DNA of 22,633 nt, taken from positions 10,927 to 33,559 of the forward strand of contig JBBIJQ010000022.1 in NCBI GenBank assembly GCA_037445915.1, given 5' to 3'. Of this stretch, positions 5,847 to 17,357 are shown in pieces. A program made the position numbers and the translations under genes. Positions within the stretch are counted from its first letter, which is position 1; every line of letters begins with the position of its first letter. The DNA comes from Planctomycetales bacterium (GTDB taxonomy: Bacteria > 4484-113). The notes under the pieces are model-generated. The model saw nothing but the letters and a program-made list of their open reading frames with translations, did not search any database and was not told the origin of the DNA.

Positions 5847-7106
5847 ATGGGGAAGACTATCATTGAAAAAATCGTTTCCGCCAAGTCCGGCGCGGAAGCG
5901 CATGCGGGAGATGTCGCCTGGATAACGCAGGATTACGTGACCGCCCGCGATTTCGGCGGCGCCAGCGTGGTGGGGAATTTCCGCGAAGCTTTTGGCGTGG
6001 ATGCGCAGGTCTTTGACCCAGCGCGCGTGTTCTTTACCCTGGACTGCAACGCCCCTGCCAACACTGTGGGCTACGCCACAAACCAGCAAATCTGCCGCGA
6101 CTTCGCCCGCGCGATGGGCCTTAAGGTTTACGACGTGGACGCTGGCATCGGAAGCCACCTGCTCATTGAAATGGGCCTCGCGCTCCCCGGCTCCACCGCT
6201 ATCGGCACCGACAGTCACTATAACATCCTCGGCGCGGTTGGCTCGTTCGGGCAGGGCATGGGCGACCTTGACGTGGCATACGGCTTCAAGCACGGCCGCG
6301 TTTGGTTTGACGTGCCGCACACAATCCGCGTGAACGTGAAGGGCAAGCTGATGTCCCACGCTTCGGCCAAAGACCTGACGCTCGCGGTTGTGAAACATTT
6401 CGGCAGCGACGGGCTCATCGGAAAGTGCGCCGAGTTCTACGGCGACGTCATTGACGCGCTGGACGTCCCTGGGCGCATAACGCTGGCGAGCATGGCGACC
6501 GAGATGAGCGCGGTGAGCATTTTTATCCCGCCCAACGACGCGGTTGTGAAGTGGCTGGCGCGGCGCACCGTCGGCAAGGTGGATAACGTCCAGGCCGATG
6601 CTGACGCGAAATACGCCGAAGAAGTGACCATTGAGCTGGGCGACATTGAGCCGATGATAGCCTGCCCGTTCTCGCCGGACAACGTGCGCACGGTGCGCGA
6701 AGTCGCCGAGGAAGGCGTGCGCATTGACAGCGGCTTCATCGGAAGCTGCACCAACGGGCGCGCCGAGGACTTCGCTTCCGCATACGCGCAGCTTGAAGGC
6801 GGCAATGTCGCAGAGCGAGTGACGCTGAAGCTCGTGCCTGCGACGCGCGAAGTTTACGCCGAGATGCTCTTCGGCGGGCTGCTGGAGAAGCTTTTCAGCG
6901 TGGGCGCGCTGGTGCACAACCAGGGCTGCGGCGGATGCGCTGCGGGGCAGGTCGGCATGACCGGCGAAGGCGAGGTGCAGGTGAGCACTTCCAACCGCAA
7001 CTTCCGTGGCAAGCAGGGCGCGGGCAGGACATATCTCGCCAGCCCGGCGACGGTCGCCGCCAGCGTGCGCGCGGGCCGCATCGCCGTTCCCGAGGTGATT
7101 AAATGA
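5847..7106 (+). CDS. Aconitase-family (LeuC/HacA/DmdA-type) dehydratase large subunit, divergent active site
   Basis: MGKTIIEKI start, GTDSH, GSCTNGR, GCGGC (three [4Fe-4S] Cys), STSNRNFRGKQG, YLASP. It has atypical ARDFGG, LDCN and GIGSH motifs. Confidence 0.92.
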   Translation: MGKTIIEKIVSAKSGAEAHAGDVAWITQDYVTARDFGGASVVGNFREAFGVDAQVFDPARVFFTLDCNAPANTVGYATNQQICRDFARAMGLKVYDVDAGIGSHLLIEMGLALPGSTAIGTDSHYNILGAVGSFGQGMGDLDVAYGFKHGRVWFDVPHTIRVNVKGKLMSHASAKDLTLAVVKHFGSDGLIGKCAEFYGDVIDALDVPGRITLASMATEMSAVSIFIPPNDAVVKWLARRTVGKVDNVQADADAKYAEEVTIELGDIEPMIACPFSPDNVRTVREVAEEGVRIDSGFIGSCTNGRAEDFASAYAQLEGGNVAERVTLKLVPATREVYAEMLFGGLLEKLFSVGALVHNQGCGGCAAGQVGMTGEGEVQVSTSNRNFRGKQGAGRTYLASPATVAASVRAGRIAVPEVIK

Positions 7107-7618
7107 GCGAGTTCATTATCAAAGGCAAGGCGTTCCCGCTTCTGGACGGCGACGGCGCGCTCGTGAACAACATAGACACCGACATGATCTTCCACAACAA
7201 GTGGCTGCACATCACGAAGATGGAAGAAATGGGGCAGTACGCGCTGGGCAACCTCAAGGGCTTTGAGGATTTCCCCAAGCGCGTGCAGCCGGGGATGTGG
7301 GTTGTCGCAGGGCGCAACTTCGGCGCAGGCAGCAGCCGCCAGCAGGCGGTGGACTGCTTCAAGGCGCTTGGCTGCGTCGGCATCATCGCCATATCCGTCG
7401 CGCCGATTTACTTGCGCAATGCTATAAACGCCGGTATGCCCGTCGCGCAGGTGCCATGCCTCGCGGGAATGGTGCAGGAAGGCGACGAGATGGCGCTGGA
7501 CATGGAAGCCGGCACGCTTTCCATCGCGCGCACCGGCACTCTCATCCAGGCTGAACCCCCCATTTCCTCCGTCCAGCGCGAGATATACCAGGCCGGCGGC
7601 TTGATGAAGCTGGGGTAG
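7103..7618 (+). CDS. Aconitase-family (LeuD/HacB-type) small subunit
   Basis: NIDTDMI, GRNFGAGSSRQQA, IYLRNAINAG; ATGA overlap with the large-subunit gene. Confidence 0.92.
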   Translation: MSEFIIKGKAFPLLDGDGALVNNIDTDMIFHNKWLHITKMEEMGQYALGNLKGFEDFPKRVQPGMWVVAGRNFGAGSSRQQAVDCFKALGCVGIIAISVAPIYLRNAINAGMPVAQVPCLAGMVQEGDEMALDMEAGTLSIARTGTLIQAEPPISSVQREIYQAGGLMKLG

Positions 7619-7671: not shown

Positions 7672-8853
7672 ATGGAAACGCTTGATTATCACCGCTTGGG
7701 TGCTTCAATTCAGTCTCTCCGCAAGGCGCGTAACATCAGCCAAACAGAACTCGCAAAGGCTATCGGCCTCAAAAGCCCACGCGCAATTTCCGAGCTTGAG
7801 AGCGGCAAACGGGAATTGCGCGGCTCGGAAATACGTGCATTGTGCGACAAACTGGAATGCACGCTCGCCGAGCTTTTTGGCCTGGAGGCAGACCCGCTGG
7901 CGTCAACATCCGGCGCGTGTCTGCGCGGCGATGATGCGAAGGACGAGGAGCTGGTCCGGATTGTGCGAAGGGCGCTGCGCCATGCGAAACTACTTCGTGA
8001 AATTGAAGAGGTCTTAGGGCGCACACCCCTAACTCAGCTGCCGTTGCTGGACAAGAGCTATCCGCTTAGCACGACTTACGAGAGCGCGCGCGAGCAAGCG
8101 ATTGAGCTGGCTGGCTGGATGCGTAATCTCATTGGGGAAAAAGGCGGGCCGGTTGGGAATCTGGAGAAGGCTCTTGAGGCGCACGGAGTTGTTTGGGCAA
8201 CCTGGGACCTGCCGAAAGGGGTTTCGGGATTAACCCTGCGCTGCAACGGAAGGCCGGTCATAATCCTTGAGTCCAGCGAACATGAACAGCGGCAGCGGTT
8301 CACAATGTCTCACGAACTAGCGCATGTTCTTATGGACACATCTGAACATGCTGTGCTAACCCGCGATTACCGTGAAACGGGCAAGGGCCGCAAGAGCCAA
8401 ACAGGAATCGTTGAGCATCGCGCCAACCACTTCGCGGGAGCGTTCTTAATGCCGGAGGCCGCAATACGGGAGTTTGCCGAAGGAAGGTTCAACCTAAGTG
8501 AACCAGTCAAAAACGAGGACATTTCAAAGCTGGCCCGTCATTTTCAAGTAAGTTTTCAGGCGGTGGCTACAAGGCTGGCTCATCTAGGCTTCATCACCTG
8601 GGATCGTTATAGGGAAATCAAAGATAGCCAACTAGAGATGAGAAACCTGCAGCAGATGCCAGGGCAGCTATCAGAAGTCCTTATGGTGTGGGCTGCTAAG
8701 CTTCAGTCTTCGCCGCGCATGCTGGAGCTTATTATTGAAGCACTGGAAAAAGACCTAATCACATTCGGCCGCGCCTGCGAGTTGGCGATGACAGATAGAG
8801 AATCTCTGGAAATGTTTCTCGCCGAATACAGCCGGGTAGAGAATGGAGGGTAG
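7672..8853 (+). CDS. XRE-family HTH + ImmA/IrrE (M78) zinc metallopeptidase fusion
   Basis: N-terminal HTH (LRKARNISQTELAKAIG..ISELESGKR), then RQRFTMSHELAH (HExxH), EHRANHFAGAFLMP, LARHFQVSFQA, and a C-terminal ITFGRACEL motif. Confidence 0.93.
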   Translation: METLDYHRLGASIQSLRKARNISQTELAKAIGLKSPRAISELESGKRELRGSEIRALCDKLECTLAELFGLEADPLASTSGACLRGDDAKDEELVRIVRRALRHAKLLREIEEVLGRTPLTQLPLLDKSYPLSTTYESAREQAIELAGWMRNLIGEKGGPVGNLEKALEAHGVVWATWDLPKGVSGLTLRCNGRPVIILESSEHEQRQRFTMSHELAHVLMDTSEHAVLTRDYRETGKGRKSQTGIVEHRANHFAGAFLMPEAAIREFAEGRFNLSEPVKNEDISKLARHFQVSFQAVATRLAHLGFITWDRYREIKDSQLEMRNLQQMPGQLSEVLMVWAAKLQSSPRMLELIIEALEKDLITFGRACELAMTDRESLEMFLAEYSRVENGG

Positions 8854-9397
8854 AGGGCGCAGCGGGATTGGCGAAGATGAACTACTGGTTACACCGGCTG
8901 TAATGGACTCAAGCATCCTCTATAACTTCGTTCTAATCGGCTGCGTTGACCATTTGGTTTGCGCCTTTGAACAACTGGCAATTACGCCAAGGCTGCGAAG
9001 TGAGATGAGCAAGCACGACATCCTGGCTTCCATTAGTAAGCATGTTGCCGTCAAGCGGATCGTCGTGCTTGACCCTACGCTTGAAGAGAACTTTGTTGCG
9101 GTTTCAATTGTTTCAAGAGGGGCATATGGGAAAAGCCTAAGTGAAACTGATAAGGAAATCATCTCCATCGCAAAGTCGCGTGGATTGAGAGTGCTCTCTG
9201 AAGATACGCCAATGCGAAAAGTAGCTATTGAGCAGGGAATAAGGGAATCCGACCTATTCAACACGCGAGAATGCCTACAGAAGCTTGTTGATTGTGGAAG
9301 ACTAGAGTTAGAGGAAGCGAAAACACACTTTGTGAAAATCAACGAACAGCGTGTTTTACACCGGCATCCTGCGCTTCCCTGGGAAGACGATAGTTAG
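8843..9397 (+). CDS. PIN-domain protein (DUF3368-like), putative ribonuclease/toxin
   Basis: PIN acidic pattern VMDSSIL, SE, LSETDKEIISIA, VLSED. It overlaps the upstream peptidase gene; the exact start is uncertain. Confidence 0.75.
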   Translation: MEGRGRSGIGEDELLVTPAVMDSSILYNFVLIGCVDHLVCAFEQLAITPRLRSEMSKHDILASISKHVAVKRIVVLDPTLEENFVAVSIVSRGAYGKSLSETDKEIISIAKSRGLRVLSEDTPMRKVAIEQGIRESDLFNTRECLQKLVDCGRLELEEAKTHFVKINEQRVLHRHPALPWEDDS

Positions 9398-9475: not shown

Positions 9476-10600
9476 TTACACCCCGCTCACGGTAACGCCC
9501 CGCTTGGCGAGATGCCCCATGAGCCCGGTGAAGCATGCATCATCAAGCCCCAAGTATTCCGGCGTGGAAACGCCCTTGCGGGTGAACACGCCGTCGCGGA
9601 TGAGGCGCACGGCTGCGGTGCCGGTATAGCCGGTCGTGCGCGCCATGGAAGTCGTCTCGCCCTCGCGGTCGTAAGCGTCAAGCAAGTCGTAGGTGAGCGC
9701 CAACTCCTTGCCGTCCTTCACGCCGCTGACCGCCACGCGCATGACGGTGACATCCTCTTCGCCTTCGCGCATCTTCCACTGCGGGAACAGCAGCGCCGCG
9801 GCAACGTCCAGCGGCCGCACCTTCCCCCCGCGCACTTCAAGCTCACCCTTGCCGAACAGCCCCGCCTCGCGCAGCGCGCGCATCTTGTCGGCATGACCGG
9901 GGTAGCGCAGCGTCTTCTCCACCATCTCGTCTGCCTTCAGCACGTTCACGAGCGAGCGCAGCCCGTCGCTGATGAATGCCTCAAGCTTGCCAATGCCAGC
10001 AAAGTCAAGCTGCTCCACTTCCGAAAGCGCGTCCTTAAGCGCGACTTTGCCCCCGCGCACGATGCGCGCCGGCCGCGTGTATTCCTCCAGCACGTCCACC
10101 GCCGAGAACACGACGCGGTAGTTCCACGGCGGCTCCGGCGTGCGCGGCAGCCCGCCTACGTAGATGGCGATGCTGTGCACTGTATCAAGTTGCGTCGTTG
10201 CATGCGCCGCCAGCGCGTGCGAAAGACCCGGCGCAACGCCGCAGTCAGTTATCGCGATGACGCCAAGCTGCTTCGCCGCATCGTGCAGCGGAGTGGGGTC
10301 TTCGGGCATGAAGCTAATGTCAACGACATTGCGCCCGGCTTCAATAATCGCCGCTAGCGACTGGAAGCCCATGTGCCCCGGCAGCGCCAGCACCGCGATG
10401 TCGTGCTCGCGCGCAAGGCGGCCGATGGTTGGCGCGTGGTGCAGGTTCGCGGCTTGCGTAGTGACGCCGGGGATGCCCGCCAGCGTTTGCAGCGCGGCTT
10501 CGTTCGCGTCAATCGCGGTGACTTCAAACTCGCGGTCCATAGCCAGGTCGCGCACCATCGCGCCCCCGACGAGGCCGCATCCAAATACTACAGCTTTCAT
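9476..10600 (-). CDS. Saccharopine dehydrogenase-family protein, most like L-lysine 6-dehydrogenase
   Basis: Rossmann GCGLVG; ALPGHMGF, VDISFMPEDP, GVAPGLS, YVGGLP, EEYTRPAR, EAFISDGLRS, TLRYPGH and SMARTTGY match my recollection of the Pyrococcus horikoshii lysine 6-dehydrogenase. Start placed at ATG 10600, with an AGGTGG SD. Confidence 0.85.
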   Translation of the reverse strand: MKAVVFGCGLVGGAMVRDLAMDREFEVTAIDANEAALQTLAGIPGVTTQAANLHHAPTIGRLAREHDIAVLALPGHMGFQSLAAIIEAGRNVVDISFMPEDPTPLHDAAKQLGVIAITDCGVAPGLSHALAAHATTQLDTVHSIAIYVGGLPRTPEPPWNYRVVFSAVDVLEEYTRPARIVRGGKVALKDALSEVEQLDFAGIGKLEAFISDGLRSLVNVLKADEMVEKTLRYPGHADKMRALREAGLFGKGELEVRGGKVRPLDVAAALLFPQWKMREGEEDVTVMRVAVSGVKDGKELALTYDLLDAYDREGETTSMARTTGYTGTAAVRLIRDGVFTRKGVSTPEYLGLDDACFTGLMGHLAKRGVTVSGV

Positions 10601-10612
10601 ACAGGCCACCTG

Positions 10613-11728
10613 TTAGAGCTTAGAGACGATAGCTTCGGCCATCTCCATCGTGGAGCTGCTGCCGCCCATATCATATGTGCGCACCTTGCCTTCGGCAATG
10701 ACCGCCGCAATCGCAGCCTCAAGCTTTTCCGCTCCCGCGCCTTCTCCGAGCCAGTCAAGCATCAGCTTCGCCGAAAGCAGCATGGCGATCGGATTCACTT
10801 TGTATTGACCGGCGTATTTCGGCGCGCTGCCATGCGTCGGCTCAAAGACCGCGTACTTGTCGCCGATATTCCCGCTGGCGGCAAAGCCCATCCCGCCCAC
10901 GAGTTGCCCCGCAAGGTCGCTGATTATGTCGCCAAACATGTTGGAGGCGACGAGCACGTCGTATGCGAGCGGGCTCTTGAGCAGCCACATGCACATCGCG
11001 TCAATGTTCGCCTCGTCAAAAGCAATGCCGGGGTAATCCTTCGCAAGCTTGCGCCCGGCGCGCACCATCATTCCGCTTGTCTCGCGCACGACGTTGGGCT
11101 TTTCCACCATAGTCACGCGCTTGCGCCCGTGCTTCTTCGCGTATTCAAATGCCTGGCGCGTAATGCTCTCACAGCCCTTCACCGTGTTCAGGCGAACGCT
11201 TATCGCCATTTCATCATTCGGGGTCGCGGAAAACCGCTTCGCCTTCGGGTGCGTGTCCAGCGCGGCGCGCACGGCGTCGGGGATGGGGTGCCACTCTATC
11301 CCCGCGTAAAGGTCTTCAGTGTTCTCGCGAAAGACGGTTAGGTTGATGCCCTCGCAGTAAACCAGCGGGTTTCCGGGGTAACCCTTGCAGGGGCGAAGCG
11401 CCGTGTGCAAATTGAACTCCTGGCGCATCTGCACGATGGGCGAGAAGTAGCTCAGCCCCTTGCCCTGCAATTCCGGCGCAAGCTCGGCGGCGGCCTCGTC
11501 TCGCGGCTTGCTGGTGATAGCGCCGAAAAGCGCGCAGTCAGTGTTGCGCAGTAGCTCTTTGGTGCGGTCGGGGAAGGGGTTGCCCTCGCTGCGCCAGAAC
11601 TCCCAGCCGATGTCGCCGTGAACGTATTCAGCGTCCAGCTTCATCGCGTCAAGCACGAGGCGCGCGGCCTCCATCACGTCGTTGCCCACTCCGTCGCCGG
11701 GCAGCCATGCAATCCGGTACTTAGCCAT
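10613..11728 (-). CDS. Isocitrate/isopropylmalate dehydrogenase family protein, homoisocitrate dehydrogenase-like
   Basis: PGDGVG, RENTEDLY, KPNV, NMFGDIISDL, EPTHGSAP. The substrate loop ALFGAITS..YFSPIVQMR resembles fungal Lys12 (ALFGAVQS..YSSPIVALR, from memory). GGAGG SD. Confidence 0.88.
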   Translation of the reverse strand: MAKYRIAWLPGDGVGNDVMEAARLVLDAMKLDAEYVHGDIGWEFWRSEGNPFPDRTKELLRNTDCALFGAITSKPRDEAAAELAPELQGKGLSYFSPIVQMRQEFNLHTALRPCKGYPGNPLVYCEGINLTVFRENTEDLYAGIEWHPIPDAVRAALDTHPKAKRFSATPNDEMAISVRLNTVKGCESITRQAFEYAKKHGRKRVTMVEKPNVVRETSGMMVRAGRKLAKDYPGIAFDEANIDAMCMWLLKSPLAYDVLVASNMFGDIISDLAGQLVGGMGFAASGNIGDKYAVFEPTHGSAPKYAGQYKVNPIAMLLSAKLMLDWLGEGAGAEKLEAAIAAVIAEGKVRTYDMGGSSSTMEMAEAIVSKL

Positions 11729-11743
11729 TATTAATTCCTCCGG

Positions 11744-12229
11744 TTACTTCTTCGCGTATTTATCGCGCAGGTATTCAATGAGCCCGCCGGCTTCCAGTAT
11801 CGCCGTAACTTCGGCGGGGAACGGCGGAAAGGTGAAGTCCCCCTTGCTCGTGCGCACGACGCCTGCCGCGAAATCCACTTCCGCCGTGTCGCCGTTTTCA
11901 AGCGCGCGCGCGGCTTCGGGGAGCGCCAGCGCGGGCAGGCCGCTGTTAATGCAGTTACGGTAAAAGATGCGGGCGAAGCTTTCGGCGATGACCGCCGCCA
12001 CGCCGCAGTATTTGGGCGCGAGCACGGCCTGTTCGCGGCTTGAGCCGCATCCGAAGTTCTTCCCCGCCACGATGACGTCGCCGGGCTGCACCTTCTTAGC
12101 GAATTCGGGGTCAAGGTCCTCCAGCGCATGCTGCGCCATTTCCGCAGGCTCGGAAACGGTGTAGGTGTATTTGCCGGGGAACAGCACGTCGGTGTTCACG
12201 TCGTCGCCGTATTTGAAGACTTTTCCCAT
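11744..12229 (-). CDS. Homoaconitase-like (LeuD/HacB-type) small subunit
   Basis: The true start is ATG 12229 (TAATG overlap). [42 protein letters not shown] and SSREQA recall the C-terminal domain of fungal Lys4. Confidence 0.92.
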
Positions 12230-13479
12230 TAGAAGTACTCCTTCGGCGACACAATCTCGCCGGCGATGGCGCTGGCGGCGACGGTCGCGGGGCTTGCCAG
12301 GTAAATCTCCGAGTTGGGGTCGCCCATGCGCCCCTTGAAGTTGCGGTTCGCCGTGGAGAGGCATACCTCGCCCGGCGCCAGCGCGCCTTCGTGCGCCCCC
12401 AGGCAGGGGCCGCAGCCTGGATTCATCCATACTGCGCCGGCGTCCACCGACGGCGCGACTAAGCCCTCGTCAATGGCCTGACGGTAAACCTTCATAGACG
12501 CCGGGAAAATTAGCAGCCGCACGCTCGGCGCTGCATGCTTTCCCGCGAGCACCTTGGCCGCGGTGCGGATGTCTTCAATGCGGCCGTTGGTGCAGGTGCC
12601 GATGAGCGCCTGGTCAATGCGCTTGCCCTTGTATTCGCCCACCGGCTTCACGTTGTCCACCGTGTGCGGCGCGGCGACCATCGCGTCCAGCGCGCCAAGG
12701 TCAAAGGAATGCTTCGCAATATATTTCGCATCGGGGTCGGAAAGCAGCGCGGCATGTTTTCCGTTTGGCTCGTTGAGGAATTCTGCGGTCACTGCGTCCG
12801 GAGGGAAGTAGCCGTTCTTCGAGCCCATCTCTGCCGATAGGTTGCACAGCACCATGCGGTCGGAGATGGAAAGCTGTGCTGCGGCATCCCCCGTGAACTC
12901 CACGGCGAGATATAGCGCGCCGTCCGCGCCGATGTGCCCGATTATCGCGAGCGCCAGGTCTTTCGCCGATACCCACGGCTTGAATGCGCCGGCAAGCTCA
13001 AGGCGCATCGTCTCCGGGCAAAGCAGCCACAGCCCGCCGGATACCCACACTCCCGCCGTCTCGGTGCGCCCCACCCCGGCGGCGAATGCGCCGACAGCGC
13101 CCGCAGTGGGCGTGTGCGAATCGCTGCCAAGGATGAGCCGCCCGGGGTAGGCGTAGCCGTCCTCCACCATGATTTGGTGGCAGACGCCGCGCCCGACATC
13201 GTAGAAGTGCGTGATGCCCTGCGCCGCCACGAACTCGCGGATGGCCTTGTGGTTGGCGGCATGCTTGTTGTCGGCGGCGGGCGTCACGTGGTCAAGCACG
13301 ATGACCGCGCGGTCGGGATACTTGAGTTTGGTAACGCCAATGGACGGCAGCTTCTTGAGGATGGCGGCGGAGTTGTCGTGCGAGAGGATGAAGTCGGGCT
13401 CCAGCGTGACAATCTCCCCCGCGTGCACTTCGCGGCCGGCCTTGAGGCTGAACACCTTTTCGCTAAACGTTTTTCCCAT
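12229..13479 (-). CDS. Homoaconitase-like (LeuC/HacA-type) large subunit
   Basis: SHDNS, VLDH, GVCHQ, GSDSHT, GTCTNGR, GCGPCLG, STANRNFKGRMG, YLASP; canonical catalytic residues are present. SHDNS recalls fungal Lys4. Confidence 0.93.
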   Translation of the reverse strand: MGKTFSEKVFSLKAGREVHAGEIVTLEPDFILSHDNSAAILKKLPSIGVTKLKYPDRAVIVLDHVTPAADNKHAANHKAIREFVAAQGITHFYDVGRGVCHQIMVEDGYAYPGRLILGSDSHTPTAGAVGAFAAGVGRTETAGVWVSGGLWLLCPETMRLELAGAFKPWVSAKDLALAIIGHIGADGALYLAVEFTGDAAAQLSISDRMVLCNLSAEMGSKNGYFPPDAVTAEFLNEPNGKHAALLSDPDAKYIAKHSFDLGALDAMVAAPHTVDNVKPVGEYKGKRIDQALIGTCTNGRIEDIRTAAKVLAGKHAAPSVRLLIFPASMKVYRQAIDEGLVAPSVDAGAVWMNPGCGPCLGAHEGALAPGEVCLSTANRNFKGRMGDPNSEIYLASPATVAASAIAGEIVSPKEYF

Positions 13480-14023
13480 ATTTCAGCACCAACGGTTCAA
13501 AGTTGAGGAAGTCCGCGTGGTTCACGATTATCGCTTCCAGTGTCGCGCGCGCATTGTCGCCTTCGTGGCTGTGATACATCACGCCGTGAACTACCGCGTC
13601 CGGCAGGCCCCATTTCATGCAAAGCCCGCTGCCCGACACGGGATGGCGCAGCAACTTGCCGCTCGCGCTCTTCACGTATGCGCCGTCCTTGTCGCGCCTG
13701 TATTCAAGCAGCTTGCCCACGTCGTGCAGCAGCGCGGTTGCCAACAAAATGTCGCGGTCGGCCTGCATCGCGCCTTCGCCCGCCCAGCTTGCGCTAAGCG
13801 AATCGGCGATGGCGAGCGCGGTGTTGGTCACGCGCCGCGTGTGGTCAAGGAAGCTCGCGGGGCATCCCTTGATGAGCAGCGTGAAGGGCATCTGCGCCAT
13901 GTCTTCGGGCTTCCAGCCGCCCATCTCCAGCGCGTCGGCGAACGCGGCGATGACTTTGCCGCGCAGCGCGCCGTCCTTGAACAACCCAAGCTCGGGTATC
14001 AGCGTGAAAAGTTCGTCGTTCAT
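13463..14023 (-). CDS. HD (HDIG-type) domain metal-dependent phosphohydrolase
   Basis: DHTRRV, LLHDVGK, RHPVSG, YHSHEGD, NHADF; it overlaps both neighbours. Confidence 0.9.
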   Translation of the reverse strand: MNDELFTLIPELGLFKDGALRGKVIAAFADALEMGGWKPEDMAQMPFTLLIKGCPASFLDHTRRVTNTALAIADSLSASWAGEGAMQADRDILLATALLHDVGKLLEYRRDKDGAYVKSASGKLLRHPVSGSGLCMKWGLPDAVVHGVMYHSHEGDNARATLEAIIVNHADFLNFEPLVLKYGKNV

Positions 14024-14805
14024 TTTTTCTCCAATTCGCGGGGCGCGGGCCCGTCATAGATTGCTTCCGAGGCGACGATGTTGCGCATCGGCTTTTCGCG
14101 GGTGACTTCTTCGTGGTAATGCGCGGCCATTCCGGCGACGCGCGGCAGCAGGAAGAAGAAGTTGCTGACCTCCACCGGGAACTCCAGCTCGCAAAGCAGC
14201 GCCGCCACTGCGCCGTCCACGTTGAGCGGCAGCGGCTTGCCCGTCTGCGCCGACACTTCCGCGCCGATGAGCTGCGCAAGCTTGAGGTAGGGGCCTTCAC
14301 GGCCCGCCTCGCGCGCCAGCTCAATGAGCCGCTTTGTGCGCGGGTCGTCGGTATGCACGCGGTGGCCAAAGCCTGCAAGGCGCTTCTTTTGCTCCAGCGC
14401 CTGGCGCACGTATTCCTTGGCGAATTCCTCCGGCGTCTTCTTGCTCGCCTCCATCAAGTCATGCGCGTAAAGGAACATGCGCATGGCGGGCTCAATCGCC
14501 GCGCCGTGGTGCTTGTTGATGGAGAGCACTCCCGCCGCCAATGCCGCGTTCAGCGGGGCGCCGGTGGTCGCGGAAATGCGCGCGGCCTGCGCCGACGGGG
14601 GCGTTATGCCGTGGTCAATGCTGGCCAAGAGCATCGCGTCGTAGAGCTTCTCCTCGGCGGGGCTGGGCAGCCTGCCGTGGAAGAGCAGGAAGATGCCGCC
14701 CGCGAGGCTGACATGCCCCATCAGCTCGTCAATGCGGTAGCCGCGCACGCGGATCTCGTTTGGCTTGATGCTCGTTATCGCCGTTTTCCAGGTTTTATCA
14801 GTCAT
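14020..14805 (-). CDS. Citryl-CoA lyase-like protein (short citrate-synthase fold)
   Basis: 261 aa; WKTAIT, IRVRGY, DHGITPPS, HHGAAIE, GFGHRVH..DPR, LNVDG. Confidence 0.9.
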   Translation of the reverse strand: MTDKTWKTAITSIKPNEIRVRGYRIDELMGHVSLAGGIFLLFHGRLPSPAEEKLYDAMLLASIDHGITPPSAQAARISATTGAPLNAALAAGVLSINKHHGAAIEPAMRMFLYAHDLMEASKKTPEEFAKEYVRQALEQKKRLAGFGHRVHTDDPRTKRLIELAREAGREGPYLKLAQLIGAEVSAQTGKPLPLNVDGAVAALLCELEFPVEVSNFFFLLPRVAGMAAHYHEEVTREKPMRNIVASEAIYDGPAPRELEKK

Positions 14806-15710
14806 TATTTCCTCATCCTTGAAAGGACTTCGGCGGTCGTCGCCGGGAGGTCCTCAAAGTTTTCCACGATGACGGCGCCCGCGGAGCGCAGCGCGTCAAC
14901 CTTGCTTTGGTAGCCGCCGCGCCCGCCTTCAACAATCGCGCCCGCGTGCGAAAAGCGCGTGCCTTCCTCCGCCTGCTTGCCGCCGATGTAAGCGACGAGC
15001 GGCTTCGTGAACTCGCCGCGCCGCATCATCTCCGCGACGCGCTCTTCCTGCGTCGTGCCGATTTCGCCGAACATGACGACGAGGTCGGTCTCCGGGTCGT
15101 CCTGGAAGAGCTTCACTATCGCGGGATGCGGCAGCCCGACGATGCTGTCGCCGCCGACGTGCACGATGGTGCTCGCGCCGATGCCCGCTTTCTTCAGGTA
15201 ATACGCGATGCTGGAAGTGATGCCGCCGCTTCGGCTGCTTATGCCCACGCGCCCCGGCGTGAAGAAGCGCCCTGCGGCTTCGGGGCTTCCGCCCATCATC
15301 CCCAGCACGCCCTTCCCCGGCGAGAGGCAGCCCAGCGTGTTCGGGCCGAGGAAGCTCGCGCCGCGCTCGGCGGCGAACTTCGTGAGCTTCATCACGTCGT
15401 GCAGCGGGACGCGGTCGGGGACGATGACGACGAGCTTCACGCCTGCGTCCATCGCCTCCATCGCCGCGTCCGCCGCGCCCGGCGCGGGCACGAACACGAC
15501 GCTCGCGTCAATCTGCCCGACGGCTTCGGCCGCCTGGCGCACGCTGTCAAACACCGGCACGCCCAGCGTTTCCTCGCCGCCGCGCCCCGGCGTCACCCCC
15601 GCGACGACCTTGGGGCCGTAGCCGAGCATCAGCTTGCTGCGCGCCTGGCCTTCGCGGCCGGTGATGCCCTGCACGACGACGCGGGTGTTTTCATTTACGA
15701 GTATGCTCAT
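14805..15710 (-). CDS. Acyl-CoA synthetase (NDP-forming) alpha subunit, SucD/citryl-CoA synthetase small-subunit-like
   Basis: MSILVNENTRVVVQGITG, GVTPG, FVPAP, GPNTLG, SRSGG, GEIG, FSHAGA (phospho-His). VPDRVP replaces the usual ITEGIP. Confidence 0.92.
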   Translation of the reverse strand: MSILVNENTRVVVQGITGREGQARSKLMLGYGPKVVAGVTPGRGGEETLGVPVFDSVRQAAEAVGQIDASVVFVPAPGAADAAMEAMDAGVKLVVIVPDRVPLHDVMKLTKFAAERGASFLGPNTLGCLSPGKGVLGMMGGSPEAAGRFFTPGRVGISSRSGGITSSIAYYLKKAGIGASTIVHVGGDSIVGLPHPAIVKLFQDDPETDLVVMFGEIGTTQEERVAEMMRRGEFTKPLVAYIGGKQAEEGTRFSHAGAIVEGGRGGYQSKVDALRSAGAVIVENFEDLPATTAEVLSRMRK

Positions 15711-17251
15711 TTCGCGCCCCGCTTCGCAAGGTATTCGTCAAAGCCGGGAATGGGCAGGTCTATGCGCAGCGAGCGCTTGCGTATTTCAAAGCACGCCATT
15801 TCGCAGGCGAGGCATTCGGTGCAGCGCTTAGCCGATTCATCGGCTGGCTCCTTCAGGCGCGGCTTGCCGTCCACCGCCTCCAGTATCTCCACATGGCAGC
15901 TTGCGATGCAGGGCTTGTTCTCGCAACTTGCGCAAATCGCATGGTCAAAGCTGATGCGGCCGCTGCGTATCTTGAACGCGTATTCTTCCTTTGCGGGAGC
16001 GGTGCGGCAAGTCGGCTCGCACTCATACGGCGCGACCGGCGGATATTCTTTCACCAATTCCGCCAGACGCGAGGCGCAGAACGCCGCGCTGTCGTCCCTG
16101 CCATAAGCCTCCACCGGCACCGGCAGGTCGGCGAGGAAGCGCGTGAGGATGTCTATCGCGACTTCTTCCTTGTTCCCGCCGAGGCGTATTACCGCGGGGA
16201 CATAGAGCGGCCATTCGCGGAACGCCTTGACCATGCCGCGCGCGGAGTGGAACTGCTCCTGGCTGGCGACGCCGCTGCCGCTCGCGAAGTAGCCGACGAT
16301 GCCGCCCTGCGCGAGGATGTGCTTGGCGGCGCGGTAAACCTTCGCCGCGCTGGGGTTGCCGCTGGTGTCGCAGAAGTTCTTGGCGGTGAAGCCGTTGCGC
16401 ACCAGCGCGTCCATGCTCATCATGGAGCCGCCGCCGCCTGCGCCGTGGAAGCCCACCAGCCTGTCGCCCTTCGCGCCAAGCTCCAGGAAGTAGAAGGTGC
16501 CTCGGTGGTCGGTGGCTTCGTAGGCCGCCGCGATTTTCTCCAGCTCCGTGGGAGGATGCCCGATTTCACGGGCGATTTCCACCTCAAGCTCGGGATGGCG
16601 CGGCACTGCGTAATCGTCAACCGAGAAATGGCAATCCGCCGCGACCAGCGTGCCGTCATCAAGTATGACCACGGGGTTCACTTCCAGGCTGCGCGCTTCT
16701 TCGGCGAGGAACACGCGCACGAGGCTGACGAGAAAGTCTGCGACGACGCCAAGCTCCTTGCCGCCGAAGCCGCATTCCACCGCGATGGCGCGCGCTTCAA
16801 ACGGGCGCAGGCCCAGCGCGGGGTCAAAGGGCTTGCGCACCAGCTTCGCGCGCCTTTCCTTCGCCATGTCTTCAACGCCGGTGCCGCCCCGGTCTGCAAG
16901 CACGACAAGCGGGCCGGGGATTTCATCGGAGACGAGGCAGGCGGCGAAAAATTCGCGCGCGATGGGAAGCTTCTGCTCAACGAGCACTAACTCAATGGGG
17001 AAGCCGCCTACGACCTTGCCCAGCATCTCCGCCGCTGCATCCTTGGATTCATCGGGCGTGTCGCAGAACTTGATGAGCCCCTTGCCAGCGCGGCCGGTGA
17101 CGAACGCCTGCGCCTTCACTACGACCGGCCCGCCAATGCGCGCAGCCGCCTCCGCCGCGCCTTGCGGGGATGTGGTTGTTTCGCCTGCGGGGATAGTTAT
17201 GCCGAAGCTTGAGAGGATGCTTTTCGCTTTGTGTTCAAGTAGTTTAGCCAT
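15707..17251 (-). CDS. Acyl-CoA synthetase (NDP-forming) beta subunit, SucC/citryl-CoA synthetase-like, with C-terminal ferredoxin-like domain
   Basis: Start ATG 17251 (MAKLLEHKAK). VVKAQ..TGRAGKG, LEVNP, GAGGGGSM, DTSGNP, VIRLGGN; C-terminal CASCENKPCIASC and CTECLACEMAC. Confidence 0.9.
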   Translation of the reverse strand: MAKLLEHKAKSILSSFGITIPAGETTTSPQGAAEAAARIGGPVVVKAQAFVTGRAGKGLIKFCDTPDESKDAAAEMLGKVVGGFPIELVLVEQKLPIAREFFAACLVSDEIPGPLVVLADRGGTGVEDMAKERRAKLVRKPFDPALGLRPFEARAIAVECGFGGKELGVVADFLVSLVRVFLAEEARSLEVNPVVILDDGTLVAADCHFSVDDYAVPRHPELEVEIAREIGHPPTELEKIAAAYEATDHRGTFYFLELGAKGDRLVGFHGAGGGGSMMSMDALVRNGFTAKNFCDTSGNPSAAKVYRAAKHILAQGGIVGYFASGSGVASQEQFHSARGMVKAFREWPLYVPAVIRLGGNKEEVAIDILTRFLADLPVPVEAYGRDDSAAFCASRLAELVKEYPPVAPYECEPTCRTAPAKEEYAFKIRSGRISFDHAICASCENKPCIASCHVEILEAVDGKPRLKEPADESAKRCTECLACEMACFEIRKRSLRIDLPIPGFDEYLAKRGAK

Positions 17252-17357
17252 TCGCCACCCGCCTAAGATTATACGGTCTTTCCCTCCCCCCGATAACCCC
17301 CTGCCTGTAATCAAGCCTATGCGCTAGAATCATCGCAACTATATTCCGGTGGCTTAT
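17252..17357. promoter_or_regulatory. Divergent promoter region for the CoA-ligase operon and sppA
   Basis: Minus-strand TATAAT (17273-17268) lies 16 nt before ATG 17251, with a GGCGGGTGG SD-like tract. Plus-strand TAGAAT (17325-17330) and GGTGG precede ATG 17358. Confidence 0.55.

Follow-up and report, generated by a model that had tools for sequence, protein, structure and literature searches.

Ligases of the SucCD (succinyl-CoA synthetase, SCS), citryl-CoA synthetase (CCS) and ATP-citrate lyase (ACL) types are textbook enzymes of central carbon metabolism, and to our knowledge none of them is known to carry a metal cluster. The SucCD-type reaction involves no electrons, and ATP-citrate lyase has its ligase and lyase modules physically linked to one another (PDB 6hxh, 6hxj). 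Here we describe a gene for the β (ATP-grasp) subunit of such a ligase, whose product ends in a domain with two ferredoxin-type cysteine motifs. It lies at positions 15707 to 17251 (−) of a 22,633-nucleotide stretch of a Planctomycetales bacterium (assembly GCA_037445915.1, contig JBBIJQ010000022.1, positions 10,927 to 33,559 of the forward strand), and this whole stretch is called the window below. We put at roughly 50% the probability that this is the β subunit of a CCS-like ligase with an iron–sulfur (Fe-S) module as its third component, the module having a structural and regulatory role.

Among described systems, CcsA/CcsB and Ccl, a citryl-CoA lyase (CCL), of Hydrogenobacter thermophilus (PDB 6hxq) offer the most direct comparison (Aoshima et al., 2004, as cited in PMC3362086 and PMC13147460). 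The reactions of CCS and CCL are near equilibrium, at −5.9 and −2.1 kJ/mol, each ±3.9 (table in PMC13147460). A CCS/CCL set from Planctomycetes has been placed between the CCS-CCL of Aquificae and type II ACL, with no domain of the kind described here mentioned in the available sections of that paper (PMC5459899); the same is true of the available sections of PMC13147460, PMC9802188, PMC3362086 and PMC8092247. In a full-text literature search, with subscription journals outside its reach, no paper was found to describe a ferredoxin or other Fe-S domain in ligases of the CCS, SCS or ACL type.

As in H. thermophilus, the window encodes a two-subunit SucCD-type ligase beside a short lyase of the citrate synthase family, and the lyase passes the NCBIfam cut-off for citryl-CoA lyase. 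The solved CcsA, however, has 429 residues, and its match to the β profile ends at position 421, before the cysteine motifs. By match scores, the window family is closer in sequence to Thermus SCS-β than to CcsA. Thermus SCS-β is the best PDB sequence match to the β subunit (3ufx_B, 2e-87, 297 bits); the large subunit of H. thermophilus CCS scores lower (6hxq_B, 7.6e-53, 183 bits). With SucCD (3ufx, 1cqi, 2fp4) the window ligase shares the ATP-grasp_2 and CoA-ligase domains, the SHAGA histidine motif of the α subunit and β and α genes that are translationally coupled. It differs from SucCD in its insertions, its altered loops (DTSGNP and SGSGVASQEQ) and the additional Fe-S-type domain, and it scores below the cut-offs of the NCBIfam SucC models (NF001913, 198.8 against 370; TIGR01016, 184.6 against 375.55). 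A module of this type is unexpected because the enzyme family carries out no redox chemistry.

A ferredoxin-like domain at the end of the β subunit

The β gene is read here as 514 codons and a stop, counted from the ATG whose translation opens with MAKLL; the program-listed open reading frame (ORF) begins at a TTG at 17314 and has 535 amino acids. Its TGA stop codon (15707–15709) overlaps the ATG of the α subunit gene in an ATGA. Residues 1–402 (16046..17251, −) form a SucC/CcsA-like core, assigned by Pfam, NCBIfam and PDB sequence matches and finishing at ...LAELVKE. Pfam ATP-grasp_2 matches the protein with 134.6 bits (cut-off 29.5), Citrate_bind reaches 22.2 bits, under its cut-off of 26.8, and the profile aligns with SCS-β chains across positions 3–385. 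The remaining 112 residues (403–514; 15710..16045, −), referred to here as the tail, comprise a linker, the ferredoxin-like domain and a β-hairpin, and hold 10 cysteines, against 6 in the 402 residues of the core.

Eight of these cysteines fall into two motifs. Motif 1 (C440-x2-C443-x4-C448-x3-C452; 15896..15934, −) has the variant spacing Cx2Cx4Cx3C, and motif 2 (C477-x2-C480-x2-C483-x3-C487; 15791..15823, −) is a canonical CxxCxxCxxxC. A sequence-only reading of the window had described a SucC-like subunit that continues for about 110 residues with such motifs, and had assigned the extension to a ferredoxin-like domain of the 2x[4Fe-4S] type. Both descriptions are borne out by the motifs, by the AlphaFold2 model and by the fold matches.

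In the AlphaFold2 model the predicted local distance difference test score (pLDDT) is 90.5 for the whole β subunit and 92–96 for the blocks of the tail within it, and the tail modelled by itself scores 94.9. The predicted fold of the tail is that of a ferredoxin, (β-α-β)x2, with moderate match scores. Structurally it is matched best by Fer4 domains, which superpose on it with a root-mean-square deviation (rmsd) of 2.0–2.9 Å over 62–72 residues. The top Foldseek rows are all ferredoxin-type Fe-S domains, namely those of RNA polymerase subunit D, PsaC, FixX, oxalate oxidoreductase and NuoI. The best of them is archaeal RNA polymerase subunit D (2pa8_D, E 0.033), and oxalate oxidoreductase superposes on the tail with an rmsd of 2.2 Å over 69 columns. 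The VIA all-against-all structure search returned 34 chains at Z>=5, led by Z scores of 7.1 (7bkb_K), 6.8 (2vkr_A) and 6.6, and the rows listed are again ferredoxin-type.

Sequence profiles find the domain less readily. Pfam Fer4_9 matches 36 of 38 tails of the family at E<=0.1, and all of these matches are below the gathering threshold. No NCBIfam family matches the tail or its stand-alone counterpart (described below), and a precomputed Fer4 label is present on only 2 of the 120 best homologues. Annotation misses the domain because the Pfam scores stay under the threshold, and pipelines label these proteins simply as "succinyl-CoA synthetase beta" or "ATP-grasp protein". No match in the PDB sequence search covers the tail, and the solved SucC, CcsA and ACL-β chains are without such a domain, in agreement with the earlier remark that these subunits normally lack Fe-S domains. 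Searched against 1.84 billion representatives, a profile of the tail matches no more than 161 at E<=1e-3, including many proteins of about 95–100 amino acids that consist of the domain alone. Taken with the modelled fold, this indicates that the tail is a real but divergent ferredoxin-like domain of the dicluster type, missed by routine annotation.

Conservation of the cysteine motifs

When 5.8 billion proteins were searched, 8000 candidates were scored and 5324 of them matched at E<=0.001. The 120 best homologues span 345–546 amino acids; for 119 the match extends over at least 96% of the query, the tail included. That the cysteines might not be conserved among homologues, a possibility raised in the sequence-only reading, was checked here: all eight motif cysteines are present in 121/121 proteins (the query and these 120 homologues). 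They are invariant in an alignment of 36 sequences with 50–93% identity, as are Y424, F426, G431, D436, L499, P500 and G503.

Tail-bearing relatives of the β subunit occur in at least 533 species genomes according to a genome scan. Among the best 80 of these, both motifs are complete in the tails of 80/80 species loci, and every genome is a metagenome-assembled or single-amplified genome. Their labels include Planctomycetota, Aminicenantes, Zixibacteria, WOR-3, Marinimicrobia, Calditrichia, KSB1, Syntrophobacter, Anaerolineae and Gemmatimonadetes, among others. The breadth of this distribution, together with the separate-subunit form described below, points to a so far unrecognised level at which the citrate/acetyl-CoA node of anaerobes is structured or controlled.

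A further CxxxC pair at the start of the tail (CEPTC, C411 and C415; 16007..16021, −) had also been counted as part of the domain. C415 is already replaced by alanine in a 93% identical homologue (P0002) and C411 is retained in the closest relatives only, so the pair lies outside the site. As a third metal site it was rejected, its cysteines being unconserved among homologues.

In four genomes of the same class as the source genome (G019, G020, G021 and G022), the tail match contains one in-frame stop (TAA, TGA or TAG) in frames of 258–546 amino acids. These stops probably mark the end of the gene within the reported frame.

A stand-alone form of the domain in a sister clade

A metagenome scan identified a sister clade in which the module is a separate gene of about 95 codons, located between the β and α ligase genes. 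Eighty such split loci were fetched (L088–L167), with 6 kb per side. A CcsB-like gene follows the small gene in 79/80 loci, and a CcsA-like gene without a tail precedes it in 71/80; in the other nine the match lies no more than 285 nucleotides from the start of the locus, which is a contig end in eight and the fetch limit in one (L154). The small gene is its own ORF in 53/53 split loci with a complete β gene (52 by script and L167 from the ORF list).

The β subunits of this clade are 37–46% identical to the window core, compared with 30% for a canonical SucC encoded in one of the loci (L126). They share the insertions of the window protein and its DTSGNP and (S/N)QEQ motifs, which the canonical SucC lacks, and they terminate at ...KEY, exactly where the window tail starts. 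The sister clade therefore has the same module and the same β signatures as the window; it differs from it in the separate module gene, in the Gly or Asp that its sampled members have at the first cysteine position of motif 2, and in its lyase, which is of the HpcH/CitE type.

Complex prediction for one split β subunit with its small subunit gave a score of 0.85, with 0.01 for the best control. As a rough guide, since the alignments used were specific to this analysis, 116 of 157 solved complexes attain a score of 0.85, as do 2 of 215 mismatched pairs. Runs agreed in at least 93% of contacts, the pLDDT of the partner was at least 87, and the interface comprised 70–78 contacts. The score is unlikely to be mere memory of a solved complex because no PDB sequence match covers the tail. 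On the β side (window numbering) the predicted interface involves residues ~236–248, 301–316, 334–342 and 368–372, that is, an insertion specific to the clade, along with the pair of helices located after the DTSGNP and SQEQ loops. On the side of the module it involves the N-terminal strand, motif 2 and the LPIPGL segment. These predictions support binding of the small subunit to its β subunit.

The gene context of the split form is also distinct. An HpcH/CitE-type lyase gene directly follows the α gene in all six split loci scanned, and a malic enzyme gene comes next in three of them. None of the 80 split loci has a tblastn match to the CCL, HD, aconitase-like or isocitrate dehydrogenase (IDH)-like proteins of the window operon within 6 kb per side. 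Because the lyase partner in the split clade is a different one and aconitase genes are absent from the surrounding DNA fetched, the Fe-S module belongs to the ligase, and it travels across two lyase types. A malyl-CoA route has been described in anaerobic glyoxylate and glycolate fermenters, and by analogy with the available description the split-clade cluster appears to resemble it (PMC8092247).

In one split locus (L126:1756-4615), a canonical SucCD and a second HpcH-type lyase are encoded just upstream of the Fe-S ligase set. This locus holds two ligase/lyase modules side by side.

A proposed role for the module and the alternatives to it

The enzyme would be a nucleoside diphosphate-forming acyl-CoA ligase from a distinct clade of the SucCD superfamily, and its third component a ferredoxin-fold module apparently built for two [4Fe-4S]-type clusters. 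The module extends the C-terminus of β in the window and in hundreds of species of uncultured bacteria, and is a subunit of its own in the sister clade. According to the complex model it would dock on the C-terminal (CoA-ligase) domain of β, close to the acid-substrate loops; in SCS, the loops near the predicted docking site bind the acid substrate. The clusters would keep the module folded and docked, and the stability or activity of the ligase would then depend on anoxic, iron-replete conditions. A structural and regulatory role is the most likely one because the chemistry of the ligase is non-redox and no redox partner is conserved beside both clades, and from this we infer that the clusters stabilise the enzyme or sense its surroundings. 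Of the roles named in the sequence-only reading, those of a sensor and of a structural module are still the leading candidates. ATP-dependent formation of citryl-CoA from citrate is the candidate activity, although the substrate may be homocitrate or another acid.

It is possible, and we propose it only tentatively, that this branch of SucCD-type ligases, in uncultured anaerobes from many named lineages, is a three-component enzyme whose Fe-S part switches a near-equilibrium acyl-CoA ligase/lyase node in response to redox state, oxygen or iron. If so, the redox state of the cell would decide the flow of carbon through citrate- or malate-type CoA esters, and its direction, and the enzyme would be the first redox-gated member of a textbook non-redox family. 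Heterologous expression without anaerobic Fe-S assembly may also yield a dead enzyme.

Several observations weigh against the structural and regulatory role proposed above. Foldseek finds no PDB match to the tail model at E<=1e-3, and Z scores of 5–7 are in the range that VIA itself grades as middling. Fer4_9 scores 17.2 bits on the whole β subunit and 21 bits on the tail alone, under a gathering threshold of 27. The search pattern used for the split loci, [GD]TECLACE, itself selects forms whose motif 2 opens with Gly or Asp and not with its first cysteine, so this sample is biased towards seven cysteines, not eight. The predicted interface on β shows no extra conservation when set beside the remainder of the C-terminal domain (mean majority-residue identity 0.74 against 0.77). 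Cluster binding is proposed from sequence and predicted fold alone, and sensing has no direct support from any result here. Lastly, relatives that are poor in cysteines suggest that the enzyme can manage without clusters, and this would be equally expected of a relic whose role is purely structural.

Such a relic is the main rival, though we regard it as rather unlikely. The ferredoxin fold would be an ancient scaffold or assembly subunit, in which clusters only aid folding and nothing is sensed. The variation among relatives bears most directly on this. In 100 aligned representative stretches covering all eight ligand columns, eight cysteines are present in 62, seven in 20 and six in 2. A further 10 stretches lack most of the cysteines and the domain persists, at least two of them (P0239 and P0253) running on from upstream ligase β sequence; the domain can therefore, judging from these sequences, persist as a scaffold without clusters. 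Another 6 of the 100 retain C452, C477, C480 and C483 and lack three or more of C440, C443, C448 and C487, the ligands of one cluster. The large predicted interface would suit a scaffold, as would the top Foldseek row: the Fe-S domain of archaeal RNA polymerase subunit D is regarded as structural and as a determinant of assembly. That protein resembles the window β in having a ferredoxin-like cysteine-cluster domain in a non-redox enzyme (2pa8_D, VIA Z 5.5), but its host enzyme is unrelated and the structural alignment is poor (rmsd 9–11 Å). What speaks against a mere relic is that the eight cysteines are kept without exception in the best homologues and the best species loci, across many phyla. 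Their retention throughout the fused family reflects strong selection, which suggests that the clusters themselves matter.

The module could also serve as a docking platform, drawing the partner lyase or further enzymes of the pathway into an ACL-like supercomplex. In both clades a lyase gene follows the ligase genes, and ACL itself, as noted above, joins the two activities physically. However, the lyases of the two clades have unrelated folds, one of the citrate synthase type and the other of the HpcH type. Counting here and below only fused loci long enough to tell, with up to 10 kb fetched per side, 13/68 have no CCL-like gene in the fetched DNA, and the seven of these flanks scanned with Pfam contain unrelated genes. 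A platform of this kind is thus distinctly unlikely.

True electron transfer, with the ligase coupled to a redox step or to a ferredoxin-dependent partner, seems improbable. The fold and motifs do match those of electron-carrying dicluster ferredoxins, and the source genome encodes PFOR and a 2-oxoacid:acceptor oxidoreductase (α, β and δ subunits), together with an SdhA/FrdA-like frame. Against this stand the established enzymology of the SucCD-type reaction, the lack of any redox enzyme conserved next to the ligase in both clades, and the existence of the variants that have lost most of the cysteines.

There is equally little likelihood that the cysteines bind zinc or nothing, in a zinc-ribbon-like or disulfide-stabilised module. 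The sub-threshold Fer4 scores would allow this, and the identity of a metal cannot be read from sequence; on the other hand, both the motif spacing and the predicted fold fit dicluster ferredoxins. The six one-cluster variants also bear on it. The cysteines that they keep and lose follow the classical one-cluster ligand partition of dicluster ferredoxins, not CxxC pairs, and this pattern of loss favours Fe-S clusters over zinc.

A relay by which the domain would serve, or restore, the [4Fe-4S] clusters in the aconitase-like dehydratases encoded alongside it, as the sequence-only reading had suggested, is disfavoured and very improbable: aconitase-family genes share the operon in 40/57 fused loci, but 17/57 have no aconitase-like gene in the fetched DNA, and the split clade retains the module with 0/80 loci showing such a gene within 6 kb per side.

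The operon and the source genome

The order of genes in the fused family is β with its Fer4-like tail, α, CCL, HD protein, large and small subunits of an aconitase-family enzyme and an IDH-family protein, often followed by a second dehydratase pair. In the window, the ligase α subunit gene (CcsB/SucD-like by Pfam and NCBIfam, with a candidate phosphohistidine in SHAGA) lies at 14805..15710 (−), and its counterpart is directly downstream of β in 75/77 loci. It is followed by the citryl-CoA lyase-like gene of the short citrate synthase family (14020..14805, −; NF004869, 250.6 bits, cut-off 212), found in 55/68 loci. A gene for an HD/HDIG-domain protein, assigned by Pfam (13463..14023, −; 49/63 loci), is situated between the lyase and dehydratase genes.

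The large subunit of the aconitase/homoaconitase family is encoded at 12229..13479 (−) and the small subunit at 11744..12250 (−), with counterparts in 40/57 and 33/50 loci, respectively; the listed ORF of the small subunit reaches 12430, and its start is probably near 12232. The gene for the isocitrate/homoisocitrate dehydrogenase-family protein is at 10613..11728 (−; 29/46 loci). These assignments of the two subunits and the dehydrogenase come from Pfam and NCBIfam, and within NCBIfam the dehydratase and the dehydrogenase score best on models of the homoaconitase and homoisocitrate type, below the cut-offs.

The source genome (G000) is 1.79 Mb in size and 90% complete. At this completeness it contains no HMGL-like gene (LeuA/homocitrate synthase) and no full-length Citrate_synt match, and its sole genes of the citrate synthase, aconitase and Iso_dh families are all within the window. 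The idea to which this pattern gave rise, that CCS and CCL act as a general ATP-conserving replacement for citrate synthase, was considered and rejected. In a comparison of 24 genomes of the same phylum, 15 of which bear the tail, a full-length citrate synthase is present in 13/15 tail-bearing genomes, so a replacement of this kind is not general. Only the source genome and G007, a 62%-complete genome of the same genus, are without one.

A second, canonical-looking SucC is also found in the source genome, split over the ends of two contigs (C62 and C63). An ordinary succinyl-CoA synthetase thus coexists there with the Fe-S-bearing ligase.

Two dehydratase pairs of the LeuCD/HacAB type are present in the window, at 5847–7618 (+) and 11744–13479 (−). 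In related loci, a second dehydratase pair trails the operon in the same direction in 21/45 cases. The operon of the window is closed by a gene of the saccharopine dehydrogenase family (9476–10609, −), which occurs in only 5/45 related loci, these being the closest relatives (L001–L004) and one weak match. Between the second dehydratase pair and the operon, at 7672–9397 (+), are a regulator with helix-turn-helix (HTH) and IrrE/M78-peptidase domains and a 184-amino-acid ORF with no Pfam match. This pair, the HTH-IrrE/M78 regulator and the 184-amino-acid ORF, is also found in L004.

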